Shown: positions 52,112 to 60,191 of the stretch, piece after piece
Numbering within the stretch: the stretch's first letter is position 1
How the letters are laid out: each line of letters starts with the position of its first letter
Assembly (NCBI GenBank): GCA_965262115.1
Contig: OZ253496.1
Span: forward strand, 576,001 to 640,000
Length of the DNA: 64,000 nucleotides
Direction: 5' to 3'
Source of the DNA: Nitrospinales bacterium
Lineage (GTDB): Bacteria > Nitrospinota > Nitrospinia > Nitrospinales > VA-1
Notes under the pieces: generated by a model
The model's database searches: none
Told to the model about the DNA's origin: nothing
The model's input: the letters and a program-made list of their open reading frames with translations, nothing else
Translations under genes and position numbers: made by a program

Positions 52112-52540
52112 TTAACCACAGGTTACAATAAGATCAGTTGTACCGTTATTGGTGATTCTAACTTCGCCATTGATGTCTGAAATGGAATCGCCACGGCTGA
52201 AGTTATTTTGCCTAACTAATGTTACTGATTTTCTCCCCATGCTATGCTTGCTGCCCATTTTCACTTGGGCATTACCTGCAGCTCCACCACCGTTCGTGGG
52301 AAAACTCATATTCGCATTCGGGGCCAAGCTTATAGCACTCGTGATATGAGTTGAAGAAAACCAGACCGAAGCATTTGCTTCACCCCGATCTTCAGCTCCG
52401 CCACCCCCAGCTTCAATTTTGATGGATTTAGCGTCGGTGCATTTAGTCATCGCGCCCACCGACAACATTCCTGCAAATGCAGAACTGGCGAGACAGAAAG
52501 ACGCAATGGTTACAACTAAAACAATAGCGAGTTTTTTCAT
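52112..52540 (-). CDS. Secreted hypothetical protein
   Basis: MKK signal peptide (AFA|G), strong RBS, two Cys in the mature part, own terminator. Confidence 0.75.
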   Translation of the reverse strand: MKKLAIVLVVTIASFCLASSAFAGMLSVGAMTKCTDAKSIKIEAGGGGAEDRGEANASVWFSSTHITSAISLAPNANMSFPTNGGGAAGNAQVKMGSKHSMGRKSVTLVRQNNFSRGDSISDINGEVRITNNGTTDLIVTCG

Positions 52541-54334: not shown

Positions 54335-54417
54335 ACTGGAATCCTAAAGCTGTTTTTTCGTGATAAACTTGCAAGGACTTGCTGCTTTTTTGCAAGTTGC
54401 TTTTAAAAGGCTTGTCC

Positions 54418-55017
54418 ATGCTGGTATTTAAAAAAAATATCCACAACACCTCTCACTCCCATCATCCTGAAAATGAGGCCCAGCAAAACCTGGATCCTTT
54501 TGCTTTTATTTTCAGGTCGCTGACCACCGACCGAGAAATCTTTTACGGACTACAACAGCTTCCTCAAGCAGAAGGTCGGGATCGCTTCAAGACTTTATTC
54601 CCTCATGTATCCAGATTTGGGTCCATTTCGCTGATCAACAGTTTCTCCCGGTCGCTCCTGGAAGGGCTGATCGACAAAAACCAGTGGCACTCCATGAATG
54701 CATATCATATGACATATCTGTTCGACAGCCTGCATGGTACTTTTGAGGACTACAGCTACTCGGAACCGGCGCAAAGGAAAGAAATATTTCCCGAGCTTCA
54801 CGGAGATGCTATTAATTTTGATCATTTCCTGGAAAATTATTTTTTTGGGACCGCATTTTTAATGGATGCCGAACGATTCAACAATATGCCGCCGGAAGAA
54901 AAGAAAGACCTGAAACTCACCGATCCCTGCCTGTTCGGGGTGATCAACAGGCTGATCCCTACTGAAGAAGAAGTTGTGCTTAAAAAAAGCCCGCAAACTC
55001 CCTACTCCCCTGAATAA
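54418..55017 (+). CDS. Hypothetical protein, paralog of 55755-56363
   Basis: MLVFKKNI, MNAYH, NYFF, PCLFGVIN shared with the paralog. Confidence 0.8.
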   Translation: MLVFKKNIHNTSHSHHPENEAQQNLDPFAFIFRSLTTDREIFYGLQQLPQAEGRDRFKTLFPHVSRFGSISLINSFSRSLLEGLIDKNQWHSMNAYHMTYLFDSLHGTFEDYSYSEPAQRKEIFPELHGDAINFDHFLENYFFGTAFLMDAERFNNMPPEEKKDLKLTDPCLFGVINRLIPTEEEVVLKKSPQTPYSPE

Positions 55018-55754: not shown

Positions 55755-56363
55755 ATGCTCGTTTTCAAAAACAATATTTATGACACCTCGTCCCCTGGCA
55801 AACTGATTCCTTGCCCCGACTCAGACTACAATTCCTGTTTCGATCCCCGCCATTTTGTTGAAGTGGCACTCAATCAGGAAGAAGATGTCCTGTCATTCAT
55901 TGAACACCAGCCTCAAATGTACTGGAAAGAGGATTTCAAACAGTTTTATCCCCACGCAGGAAGAATCAATTCTTTGCACTCGCTTAAAGAGATCCTGAGA
56001 ATATTGCGGCTCGGATTAATCCAGGCCGCATGCTGGCAGCATATGAATACTTACCATTTTTGTTTTTTGTATGATGTGTTGGTGCGCTTTTCTTTTGACT
56101 ACAACCATGACAGTTTGCAGGAGAAGTCATCACACCTTCCTGAGTTGAAGGGCAAGCCTGTATATCTTGGAAATTTTGTCAGCAACTATTTCTTCAATAA
56201 ATCATTCCTGGTCGACCCCGAGCATTTTAATTCGCTTAAATCGGAGGATAAAGTCGTGTACGACTGCCCCTGCCTGTTTGGTGTGGTCAATGGCCTCATC
56301 CCGACACGGGAAGAAATGGCCCTTAAAGAATCCCAAAATTATCCTTACACGGTTTTTGTGTAA
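55755..56363 (+). CDS. Hypothetical protein, paralog of 54418-55017
   Basis: MLVFKNNI, MNTYH, NYFF, PCLFGVVN. Confidence 0.8.
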   Translation: MLVFKNNIYDTSSPGKLIPCPDSDYNSCFDPRHFVEVALNQEEDVLSFIEHQPQMYWKEDFKQFYPHAGRINSLHSLKEILRILRLGLIQAACWQHMNTYHFCFLYDVLVRFSFDYNHDSLQEKSSHLPELKGKPVYLGNFVSNYFFNKSFLVDPEHFNSLKSEDKVVYDCPCLFGVVNGLIPTREEMALKESQNYPYTVFV

Positions 56364-56500
56364 ATATATTCATACCCCTCTATTGAGGGGGATAGCTTGA
56401 ACTAGCAACCTCCAGCTAATCTAAAGAAAATCAGATCAAGTTTTAGATGGCCTTGTCGTCTGCAGGAGAAACCCATTGCTCCTTATCGCCCCAGTACAAG

Positions 56501-56529
56501 TTGACACCTGTCATGTTGCATATTACAAT
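56501..56529 (+). promoter_or_regulatory. higBA promoter with putative operator
   Basis: TTGACA-17 nt-TACAAT; imperfect palindrome tgtcatgttgcatattaca spanning the spacer. Confidence 0.7.
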
Positions 56530-56534
56530 ACCAA

Positions 56535-56813
56535 ATGATTGAGAACTTCAGACACAAGGGTTTAAAAAAGCTCTACGAAAAAGGTGACAAAAGCCGATTG
56601 AGGCCGGACATTGCAAGCAAGGCAGAGCTTTATTTGTCGGTTCTTGACAGTGCTGAAACACTGAAGGAACTGGATATTATAGGATTCAGTTTTCACCCTC
56701 TTGCAGGCAACATGCGGGGTTTTTACAGTGTTTTTGTCTCGAGAAACCATCGAATTGTCTTCCGATTTGAAGATGGGAAAGCTTTTGATATTGATTTAGT
56801 GGATTACCATTAG
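56535..56813 (+). CDS. higB: HigB (RelE/ParE-family) toxin
   Basis: MIENFRHKGLK, HPLAGN, NHRIVFRF, DYH end; toxin-first order. Confidence 0.92.
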   Translation: MIENFRHKGLKKLYEKGDKSRLRPDIASKAELYLSVLDSAETLKELDIIGFSFHPLAGNMRGFYSVFVSRNHRIVFRFEDGKAFDIDLVDYH

Positions 56814-56824
56814 GAGAAATTATT

Positions 56825-57118
56825 TTGGCAATGAAAAACCCTGTTCATCCGGGAAAAATGATAAAGCATTGCGTAGAATCTTCGGGATTGAATGTTACAG
56901 AAGCCGCAAAAGGCTTGGGTGTTACCCGGCAAACACTCTCGCGGGTGATCAATGGAAAAACCTCCTTATCAGCAGAAATGGCTATTCGCGCATCCAAGGC
57001 TTTCGGTAGCACACCAGAACATTGGCTTAGAATGCAAATAGCTTATGACATGGCCCGGATGCGCGATAAGGCGGCGGGAATAAAAGTCAAACGTTTCGCT
57101 TCTGCCACCGTTGCCTGA
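56825..57118 (+). CDS. higA: HigA antitoxin (XRE HTH)
   Basis: PVHPG, AAKGLGVTRQTLSRVING, WLRMQ. Confidence 0.93.
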   Translation: MAMKNPVHPGKMIKHCVESSGLNVTEAAKGLGVTRQTLSRVINGKTSLSAEMAIRASKAFGSTPEHWLRMQIAYDMARMRDKAAGIKVKRFASATVA

Positions 57119-57191
57119 CAGAATTTACCACAAGCCATTTCCAATGTTGCAGGGTCGGTAAACGGGTACGCCAAGAGTACAACTTGCTAAA

Positions 57192-57850
57192 TCATTCAAT
57201 GCTCACTTTGCCATCCAGAAAAGCATTTGCACATTCATAGTGCCAGTTGGTTTTTGTTCGAGTGGGATAACATTTTGGCGTAAATCCGGCAGGTAATTCT
57301 GGACGAATAGCAGAATTATAAAATACAGTTTTCCGACACTTTATATTTTCCATTAAAGAACAGAAAAGAGAAATATAGTCCCTCCCTCCAAAAAAAACAA
57401 CATCTTCGTTCGGATCGTCAGGCATCATGCAAAAATCTTCGTATTGGTCTCTTTTCTTCCAGCGCTTATAAGGCTTGGCACTTAGGGAAAACGTAATATC
57501 ATATTTTGGTGTCAGAAAATCAGATTTGATCAATCCCCACCCCGCCGAGAGAATATATATTTGGTCTGTTCCAAGCTTGTTAACAAGTCTCTCATAAATG
57601 GGGTTTATATAGACCTTATATGCTTGGTAGAAACTTAATGCATTACCTTTTTCTTGGGCGTTGTATTCCCAAAGCAGTTCTCTCCAAGACTTTCCATGCC
57701 CGGATGGGTCATCAGGCCGGACATAAACCTGATTGCAGTCAAAAGGAGCTCTTTCAGGGTTTGCTACAAAAATAACAGGTTTCCATCCTTTGACAGGAAG
57801 GAGCCCATTTCGAGGCACTTTTTTGCGGCACATTGCATAACAATCTTCAT
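57192..57850 (-). pseudogene. DUF6884/YaaA-like protein, frameshifted at ~57780
   Basis: ATG 57850 gives MKIVMQCAAKK...KDG; a second frame continues KPVIFVANP...YILSAGWGL...FFGGRDY. Confidence 0.65.
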
Positions 57851-58545
57851 CAGGGCTTTTCCGTCTCAGACACAAGAAATTCCAGCTTGTCGAGAAAAGC
57901 TGGATCATAATCTTCATCAACATGGTTCTGGTTCCATAAGCATGAATTCCCGACCCGCTCGCGATTACATTTCTAGCCCAGCCAATTTTGAGAAGGAGGA
58001 TCGAGAGATTGCTTGTTCTGATTACTGAGTAAGGCAATAGAATTCCTTTCAATGTATCCGCGCAGACTATCAGGACCGGAATCATCTTTGATAGCAAGCC
58101 AGAGGAAAGACATGTTGCCAATAACCTGGCTGACTTCCTTTTCCAATGGCTGTTCAGTTTTTTTGGTAGCATGCTTGGCGATACCCCAGCTTGGGAATTT
58201 ATAGCCGTTTTTTTCTACCAAAGCTATGCCGACAAGTAGCCTAAATATAGATATTCTATGATTTCCGCCACCTGTTTTTGCCGTACCTTTGTGCTGTGAT
58301 AAGCGGTTCCACAATTTGGTACGCGAACCCGTTTTGAGGGCATGGGTTCCAACCCGGACAATTCGCAAACCTTCTCCGGTGTCCTCTCTAATTTCGCCGG
58401 GTTCCTTAAAAAAATAAACTCCTCTTTCCGACCATTCCATGCGCCCATGATAATCGGCCAATTTGCGCTCCCCTCCAATATTTTTTTTAAGCTGCTCCAG
58501 GATAGAATAAAACCTGCGCAAGTCTTTTATTCTCTTATTCGACAT
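57850..58545 (-). pseudogene. GIY-YIG-like nuclease with an in-frame TAG at 57973-57975
   Basis: GVYFF...IVRVGTH...RLSQH...IERN; after the TAG the frame continues LWNQNHV...EKP*, ending in a TGATG overlap with the next gene. Confidence 0.65.
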
Positions 58546-58646
58546 ATTCCAATGATTCTTACGATAGTATTTCAACAAAATGTTAATCTAGGATAACATT
58601 GATTAAAGTAAAAATTTATTAGCTTTGCAGTATAAGGAGGACTTCG

Positions 58647-60191
58647 TTGCGCCCAGTCGTTACAGCAAAACAGATGCAGGCTATCGATCAGCAGGCGATT
58701 GATGGATTTGCCATTCCCGGTATCACCCTCATGGAAAACGCCGGGATTGGAGTTGTTCAGGAATTGCAAAAGCGTTTTCCCGATCTGCCTCAAAAAAAGG
58801 TATTCATATTTTGCGGCAAGGGTAATAACGGAGGGGATGGCTTTGTCATTGCCCGGCATTTAAGTAACCTGGGGTCCAAAGTTACCGTCCTGTTATCCGG
58901 AAAATGGTCGGAGCTGAAAGGAGATGCTGCAATCAACGCCAACTCTGCCAAAAATATCGGAATTCAGGTTGATGAACTAGACTCTGCACATTTGAACCGC
59001 CACGATCATAAACTGCGCCATTGCGATATCATCATAGATGCCGTGTTCGGGACCGGACTGAATAAACCCGCCTCAGGCTTCATGGAAAAAGTCATCGATA
59101 AAATCAACCGGTTCGAAAAGTTTGTGGTCTCGGTGGATATCAATTCCGGGGTGGACTCCGATAGCGGCCAGTTGATGGGGCCGCATGTCAAATCTGACCT
59201 GACCCTTGCCCTCGCCTGCTACAAGCAAAGCCATTTGCTCCACCCGTCAGCCGGGGTCATGAAAGAAATCCAGCTCATTGATATTGGAATCCCGGCACAA
59301 GCCTGTGAAAGTCAGAATATTCAGGTCCATCAGTCGGAAGAGGAGGACATAAAATCTTATTTCCAAAAACGCCACCCCAATTCCCACAAAGGCGATTATG
59401 GTCATGTTCTGGTGCTTGCCGGGTCGAGAGGCAAAAGCGGTGCCGCAGGGTTGACGGCTCTCGCTGTTCTACGGGCCGGAGCCGGTTTATGCACACTCGC
59501 GCTTCCCGGCTCCAGCCAGAAGGCGGTTTATCCTATGGAAGTGATGACCATCCCACTACCTGAAACTACCAGCGGCACATTATCCTTGAAGGCAAAAGAA
59601 TCCATTCTGAATCTTCTCGAGGGTAAGGCAGCGTTAGCTGTAGGACCAGGAATCTCCACCGATCCGGAAACGGTTGCTTTGATCGGTGAGACACTGCCGC
59701 AGATTCAGTGCCCACTAGTGCTGGATGCGGATGCTCTAAACGCGTTATCGTTGCATAAGGATTGGCTGGGAAAGTTGAAACCCGAAACCGTTCTCACCCC
59801 ACATCCGAAAGAAATGTCCCGTTTAACCGGAGTGCCAACTGAAGAAATTCAAAGAAATCGCATTGCCACAGCGTCTAAATTTGCCCGCGATCATTCCTTG
59901 ACCCTGATCTTAAAAGGTTCTCCAAGCCTGATTGCATTGGCCGATGGATCACTGGTTATCAATCCCACAGGCAATGCCGGCATGGCAACCGGTGGGTCGG
60001 GAGACGTTTTAACCGGAATCATTGCAGGGTTAATGGCTCAGGGTTTTTCCACCGCACAGGCTTCCGTTGCGGGAGCTTATATACACGGCGAGGCAGGAGA
60101 TTATTTTGCCAAAAGTGAAAGCCAAACCACTTTGATCGCGGGAGATTTATTAAGATGCCTGCCGGAAACCCTGAAATGCATACTTCCCTGA
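58647..60191 (+). CDS. nnr: Bifunctional NAD(P)HX epimerase/dehydratase
   Basis: LMENAG, GKGNNGGDG, DAVFGTG, HKGDYG, TPHPKE, GGSGDVL. Confidence 0.95.
   Translation: MRPVVTAKQMQAIDQQAIDGFAIPGITLMENAGIGVVQELQKRFPDLPQKKVFIFCGKGNNGGDGFVIARHLSNLGSKVTVLLSGKWSELKGDAAINANSAKNIGIQVDELDSAHLNRHDHKLRHCDIIIDAVFGTGLNKPASGFMEKVIDKINRFEKFVVSVDINSGVDSDSGQLMGPHVKSDLTLALACYKQSHLLHPSAGVMKEIQLIDIGIPAQACESQNIQVHQSEEEDIKSYFQKRHPNSHKGDYGHVLVLAGSRGKSGAAGLTALAVLRAGAGLCTLALPGSSQKAVYPMEVMTIPLPETTSGTLSLKAKESILNLLEGKAALAVGPGISTDPETVALIGETLPQIQCPLVLDADALNALSLHKDWLGKLKPETVLTPHPKEMSRLTGVPTEEIQRNRIATASKFARDHSLTLILKGSPSLIALADGSLVINPTGNAGMATGGSGDVLTGIIAGLMAQGFSTAQASVAGAYIHGEAGDYFAKSESQTTLIAGDLLRCLPETLKCILP

Follow-up and report, generated by a model that had tools for sequence, protein, structure and literature searches.

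The closest described counterpart of the locus analysed here is PDC-M57, a phage-defence candidate named in PADLOC that joins the families M57A (PDLC04712) and M57B (PDLC04713/04714). According to the main text of the preprint by Payne et al., 145 such predicted candidates (PDCs) were added to PADLOC and are defined by their embedding in BREX, DISARM or type I restriction-modification (RM) systems; the same text reports a loose link to defence islands for PDC candidates in general (bioRxiv 10.1101/2024.01.29.577857). The name 'PDC-M57' was not found in the searchable main texts of the literature; the M57 annotation probably stands in the preprint supplements. The main texts of PMC12988326 and PMC12881386 do not contain 'M57', and the eight candidates tested in a study later than the preprint, as far as its main text goes, do not include PDC-M57 (PMC12881386). 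Literature searches returned no mention of DUF7662, DUF7669, GIY_YIG_3 or PF26468; YaaA appears together with GIY-YIG only in an unrelated review and, in the available text of PMC8632793, comes up in connection with a cassette of queuosine genes close to defence systems. The original prediction, made on this DNA from its letters alone, knew of no experimental description of the pair; none was found in the literature, nor was an activity measurement for any family member.

Three other described groups lie close by. CMoRE / PD-T4-3 is a type IV enzyme (PDB 9u75) that combines a GIY-YIG cutter with a separate modified-base sensor module, an arrangement also proposed below for the present pair, and that cuts 5hmC/5ghmC DNA according to the part of the report consulted (PMC12923530). 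It is a single chain with an unrelated sensor fold, whereas the present pair consists of two genes and its nuclease has an arginine where the YIG tyrosine would be. YaaA (DUF328, PF03883), DUF6884/YfjM (PF21818) and DpdC have in common with gene 2 of the pair the 'cantaloupe' fold, and with its homologues the CxxxK and LSAxxG motifs, the combination of these motifs with a YaaA fold being the definition of DUF6884 in the text seen of PMC11701544; gene 2 differs from them in its greater length, in an insertion that follows CxxxK, in a C-terminal NWHY motif and in its tie to a nuclease. Finally, the intact gene pair adjoining the locus at 56535-57118 is an ordinary HigBA type II toxin-antitoxin (TA) system, which differs from the nuclease pair in lying on the opposite strand, having its own promoter-like site and being inherited separately.

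The window, i.e. the whole stretch of 64,000 nucleotides under analysis, contains two overlapping genes (gene 1 and gene 2, Table 1) that belong to the same two adjoining families as PDC-M57. By sequence comparison, this pair is a long-partner variant of that named candidate, present as a decaying copy, and not a new system. The original prediction described an uncharacterised system and itself counted a match to an already named one against this claim; such a match having been found, the system can no longer be called unnamed. Compared with PDC-M57, the partner in the window is of a longer subfamily (217-219 aa), which matches the M57A model (138 positions) in its core only, the nuclease precedes the partner, whereas on a Deinococcus plasmid the short DUF6884 comes first, and both genes are broken (TAG at codon 191, frameshift at 57780-57782).

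Anatomy and decay of the locus

Table 1. Features of the locus and of its chromosomal site (window coordinates)
Feature	Position	Strand	Remarks
Conserved hypothetical gene	55755-56363	+	Flank of the variable site
Variable site	56364..58645		About 2.28 kb here; between the conserved hypothetical gene and nnr/yjeF
higB toxin gene	56535..56813	+	Intact; PF05015, E 8e-18
higA antitoxin gene	56825..57118	+	Intact; convergent with the pair; TIGR02607, E 1.9e-25
Gene 2, DUF6884/YaaA-fold long (217-219 aa) partner pseudogene	57192..57850	-	CxxxK, LSAGWG, GGxxY and NWHY motifs
Frameshift in gene 2	57780..57782	-	One base, in an A run, after about codon 23
TGATGA stop/start overlap	57847..57852	-	Gene 1 stop joined to gene 2 ATG
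Gene 1, GIY_YIG_3 (PF26468) / PDC-M57B-type nuclease pseudogene	57850..58545	-	231 codons
Premature TAG in gene 1	57973..57975	-	Codon 191
nnr/yjeF	58647-60191		Other flank of the variable site

Gene 1 is read on the minus strand from an ATG at 58545 through 190 codons to the TAG (57975-57973), beyond which a further 40 codons lead to a TGA (57852-57850), exactly as expected of the gene of about 231 aa that had been proposed by reading through one TAG. This TGA overlaps the ATG of gene 2 in the sequence TGATG (57852-57848), as had also been noticed. A further in-frame TGA follows at 57849-57847, so that the ATGA overlap usual in the family (51/68 homologous junctions) is present at the window junction too; such a stop/start overlap suggests translational coupling of the two genes. 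Gene 2 starts with MKIVMQCAAKK at 57850 and changes frame within the A3 run at 57782-57780, where a break near 57780 had been foreseen, and its second frame, open up to a stop at 57194-57192, contains LSAGWG, GGRDY and TNWHY. The list of open reading frames had been said to misparse the locus: its pieces, at 57973-58578 (201 aa) and 57192-58172 (326 aa), are indeed mis-started or truncated, but the locus is not altogether missed. The frames are not due to chance, since homologues are numerous at E<=0.001 (5745 for gene 1, 889 for the gene 2 piece); the closest intact ones are 77% (gene 1) and 74% (gene 2) identical.

If the two lesions were assembly errors or recoded signals, the locus would be functional in this organism, a reading to which we give hardly any credence. 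The frameshift does sit within an A run, and an in-frame A-AAA-AAG at 57824-57818 of gene 2 could permit a -1 slip into the long frame at a low level. Against these points, the public contigs X1 (depth 283) and X2, which come from one study, possibly the source of this genome, carry both lesions with 0 differences, and contig X4 from a second study, which does not span the TAG, confirms the frameshift with 0 differences. Programmed frameshifting in gene 2 was rejected because the slippery heptamer occurs in just 2/71 homologous gene starts. Recoding of the TAG was likewise rejected: TAG terminates 253 of the 1111 open reading frames of >=300 aa in the source genome, no CUA anticodon is found among the 46 tRNAs listed for it, and the residue at the homologous position varies (H 56, R 29, Q 8 and others; n=119), so that the codon is a nonsense lesion at an ordinary stop. 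Gene 2 further deviates at 9 of 80 conserved columns, compared with 2.1 +/- 1.7 in the 119 homologues on which these same columns were defined, none of which equals 9. Gene 1 has 5 deviations of this kind compared with 2.7 +/- 1.7, a number equalled by 17/119 homologues and thus no significant excess. Moreover, the pair was lost via different lesions in sister lineages. The lesions thus look real, and the contigs, the use of TAG, the rarity of the heptamer and the excess changes in gene 2 lead us to read both genes as pseudogenes, the copy of the pair in the window being predicted to be inactive.

As originally proposed, the pair and higBA occupy an accessory insertion between core genes, at a variable site (56364-58645) that in relatives is almost empty or holds something else. 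In 14 of the 22 congeners both flanks lie on one contig, and 11 such sites were fetched. The gap is of about 100-150 bp, by coordinates alone, in three congeners; most of the 11 fetched sites hold 3-methyladenine glycosylase, glyoxalase-like, WYL or unassigned genes. The glycosylase of G019 has a Pfam match at E 1.7e-83, and glycosylase-like frames or remnants occur at the same site in G012, G014, G016, G003 and G007. In G015 and G011 the site holds a gene of 375-381 aa without a Pfam match at 1e-5 (L107:220-1362, L108:203-1327), which we take to resemble DNA alkylation repair proteins; together with the glycosylase, it indicates that the site often holds DNA-damage genes.

That the TA pair is part of the module is not borne out by the congeners: G022 has higBA at the same site without the nuclease pair, and G007 has a broken pair at another location without higBA, so that higBA is best regarded as a fellow passenger. 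G013 combines higBA with a remnant of the nuclease pair bearing two large deletions; its higB is frameshifted as well (L113), and the whole insertion is therefore decaying there. Run X5, whose joints are nearly those of G013, is probably the same lineage, and a low-depth X1 contig lacks the whole variable site. All three copies of the pair found in the genus (window, G007, G013) are broken, which means that the pair is repeatedly decaying there. Terminal repeats and a target duplication were looked for at the cassette ends and none was found, and promoter and terminator counts at the cassette equal those of shuffled sequences. The window locus is best explained as a mobile cassette of two genes, here in a broken copy.

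Other features of this region were recorded in passing. The same genome carries a second stretch (G000:C1:2647647-2647892) that is 67% identical to the higB-higA junction region. The hypothetical genes at 54379-55017 and 55755-56363, both on the plus strand, lie on either side of a glutathione peroxidase gene; they are paralogous (36% identity over 201 aa) and have no significant Pfam or NCBIfam match, and the second of them has DNA matches in most congeners. The gene at 52112-52540 (minus strand) encodes 142 aa that begin like a signal peptide, and it has no Pfam match.

The nuclease and its YaaA-fold partner

Gene 1 matches PDC-M57B over positions 3-236 of the 238-position model (E 1e-81, 272 bits), as do its intact homologues (E 1e-79 to 1e-87), and scores 0.98 in the Atlas to GIY_YIG_3 clusters. 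PF26468 (GIY_YIG_3) is carried by 120/120 gene 1 homologues among the matches listed, in agreement with the GIY-YIG-type nuclease first suggested; the copy of Pfam searched, from which PF26468 is absent, and NCBIfam gave no significant family. The fold was examined on the model of an intact homologue with 77% identity (P0004, pLDDT 84.5). In a wide structure search, three of its top four matches were GIY-YIG nucleases, all with weak scores, the best being T4 EndoII (Z 4.5, rmsd 4.0, 108 aligned); weaker matches were UvrC (Z 3.6), PD-T4-3 (Z 3.6, rmsd 2.8, 82 aligned), I-TevI (3.0) and Eco29kI (2.9), and ranks 6, 7, 19 and 21 were also GIY-YIG nucleases. The rank 2 match, a plant Grx N-terminal domain, is presumably a GIY-YIG nuclease too. 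Foldseek gave no match for the model, alignment of the family with the N-terminus of E. coli UvrC by hhalign was not significant (probability 0.1), and a PDB sequence search with the gene 1 profile returned nothing significant. The GIY-YIG fold of gene 1 is putative.

In homologue numbering, Y44, R81, H85, E169 and N208 are conserved at 98-100%, and R64 at 97-100%, in alignments of 119 near and 121 long sequences. These six residues would form the GIY-YIG active site, with an arginine (R64) replacing the YIG tyrosine. From the window copy the TAG removes, in that copy's own numbering, the invariant W204-N205, N205 being the last of these six residues, plus the near-invariant H208. A nuclease activity is predicted for the family of gene 1.

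Family assignment is less direct for gene 2. Its piece scores 28.8 bits (E 1.6e-6) with DUF6884 (PF21818), below the Pfam gathering score of 30, and the intact homologue P0124 has no match at E 1e-8. The match to PDC-M57A is weak (E 2.4e-8) and covers positions 19-117 of the 138-position model; the gene 2 family meets the same core at E 2e-8 to 5e-7, and of three intact single-domain homologues two pass 1e-5 on this model and one misses. A weak match to the DpdC profile is found as well (E 7.5e-5 in the window, 1e-6 in homologues). The model of the 74% identical homologue (pLDDT 91.6) has YaaA as its best structural match by two methods (Z 7.9, rmsd 5.0, 164 aligned; Foldseek E 6.6e-4), in line with the partner originally proposed, and by this modelling gene 2 has the YaaA/DUF6884 fold. 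CxxxK is present in 111/119 homologues and LSAxxG in 118/119. Gene 2 belongs to a distinct subfamily of 217-219 aa (379 clusters at E 1e-30) that retains CxxxK, LSAxxG and GGxxY and adds the C-terminal NWHY; the PDC-M57A model as it stands may under-call this variant with its long partner.

Coupling, distribution and neighbourhood of the pair

A first genome scan with a single-protein query found no relative, but a scan of GTDB with an alignment did: at least 562 of 601 candidate stretches were confirmed, and the best 80 loci were analysed. In 60 of these an intact partner lies directly downstream of the nuclease; in the other 20 the partner is broken, partial or cut by the contig (10), is missing (8), or the locus ends at a contig edge (2). 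Downstream of the nuclease in two of the eight partnerless loci, and apparently in G069, a gene combining a winged helix with a YaaA-like part is found instead. In 12/80 loci the nuclease frame is intact although the partner is broken, partial or absent and no substitute was found, which suggests that the nuclease is tolerated on its own.

Co-occurrence and fusion, which had been suggested as checks, both came out in favour of a coupling of nuclease and partner. Among the 120 long nuclease homologues listed (of 281), 85 contain, in the same chain, a domain of DUF6884, of YaaA or of the long subfamily, and the nuclease is fused to the partner in 5 of the best 150 partner representatives. Partners are also fused to the small accessory domains DUF7662 and Swt1-HEPN, and a single partner carries the N-terminal domain of ScoMcrA, a type IV enzyme (E 8e-14). 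PF26345, presumably this same ScoMcrA N-terminal domain, is carried by 4/120 of the long nucleases listed. Two small accessory domains recur on partners (P0244, P0246, P0250, P0260, P0263, P0268, P0278, P0301 and P0321; P0262 and P0269) without a Pfam match or, searched with P0268 and P0269, a PDB match; they are possibly additional DNA-reader modules. Other fusions of GIY_YIG_3 among the 120 long forms listed involve a Mur ligase (six: P0408, P0414, P0418, P0423, P0424, P0426), a nitrilase (P0399) and a NERD-kinase (P0410).

No conserved third gene was found beside the pair in the 80 loci, be it a methyltransferase (methylases being occasional neighbours only), a repair gene or, among the conserved neighbours, a dpdA/TGT-like gene. 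In Dehalococcoidia, a 131-aa PaREP1-like gene, sometimes duplicated, follows the pair (L012, L020, L029, L035, L049, L051, L055, L065, L071). Distribution is patchy, with PDC-M57B matches in 5/120 genomes of the phylum. Ten plasmid records contain the nuclease: nine are haloarchaeal, where it adjoins HNH genes, and one is from Deinococcus, where a short DUF6884 precedes it. A search of a phage collection gave no match. The genetically tractable archaeon Haloferax volcanii also matches PDC-M57B and is a possible native test host.

The neighbourhood was assessed on 62 non-redundant loci, 18/80 being omitted as syntenic repeats, with genes called heuristically and classified by hand. A recognisable defence gene lies within 8 kb in about 20/62 loci, including type I RM, Eco57I- and MmeI-type RM, GmrSD, Avs2, McrB-N, AbiE and several PDCs; roughly a third of the 62 loci have housekeeping neighbours alone, and some others are in mobile elements. 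Defence, TA or mobile genes make up 47 of the 212 proteins within two genes on either side, versus 22 of the 145 genes more than 4.5 kb away in the same loci (Fisher p 0.10, not significant; CcrM-like methylase and AddA-like helicase omitted from the far count), a comparison made within loci. The link to defence islands that had been anticipated is therefore present but loose.

Possible function of intact relatives

We favour modification-dependent restriction as the function of intact relatives, with a probability of roughly 0.55: once bound to DNA, the YaaA-fold partner would detect an unusual base in it and so license the GIY-YIG protein to cut the DNA thus flagged, presumably that of phages. 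This reading is consistent with the absence of a conserved methyltransferase beside the pair, the single-chain fusions of nuclease and partner, the fusion to the ScoMcrA N-terminal domain, the patchy spread and turnover, the embedding in RM-type systems and the fold, and it has a precedent in CMoRE, as far as the available text describes it (PMC12923530). The weak structural scores of gene 1 and the non-significant near-versus-far comparison speak against it. In the part of the preprint seen, DpdC is a base-modifying enzyme that converts preQ0 to ADG in DNA (bioRxiv 10.1101/2025.10.09.681413); its sharing of the fold suggests 7-deazaguanine as one possible target. Partners are of several types (short DUF6884, long subfamily, winged-helix YaaA-like). 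A bolder version, tentative and rather unlikely as a whole, would make GIY_YIG_3 and these partners, then interchangeable, an uncharacterised type IV class, in which the partners would be DpdC-derived base-flipping readers of 7-deazaguanine-like phage bases and partner swap would change specificity.

The main rival, itself doubtful, is DNA repair by a mobile module: an abasic site, a ribonucleotide or an alkylated or oxidised base would be located by the YaaA-fold protein, and the GIY-YIG protein, like UvrC, would nick next to this lesion. The experimental data on DUF6884 found in the literature do point to DNA lesions, B. subtilis YfjM (DUF6884) showing enrichment with probes that carry an abasic site or an RNA base (PMC10220248, Table 1, the part consulted), and in the text seen of PMC11701544 YfjM is modelled flipping a base and YaaA has a role in oxidative stress. 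The top structural matches include UvrC, a 3-methyladenine glycosylase gene occupies the same chromosomal site in several relatives and many loci lie amid housekeeping genes. A pair so rare and patchy in its phylum, with 3/3 copies broken in the genus, would nevertheless be unusual for a repair function; the fusion to a type IV restriction enzyme domain, the cataloguing of PDCs, in the preprint's main text, from their embedding in defence systems, and the lack of a repair gene conserved as neighbour in the 80 loci also argue against repair. Less probable still is a unit for abortive infection or of the toxin-antitoxin kind, with a toxic nuclease that the YaaA-fold protein would restrain until infection. 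Two small overlapping genes would suit such a unit, and TA neighbours are many (higBA here; AbiE, BrnTA, HicB, PIN, RES, ParD, SocA and Fic elsewhere), but the loci where an intact nuclease lacks an intact partner are hard to reconcile with a toxin, and the frequent fusions of the long forms fit a reader and cutter better than a labile antitoxin.

The copy in the window adds little by itself, while the family, which is widespread, matters moderately. Should the family restrict modified DNA by way of a YaaA-fold sensor, an obscure fold would acquire a function, and a new reagent for the detection of modified bases might follow.
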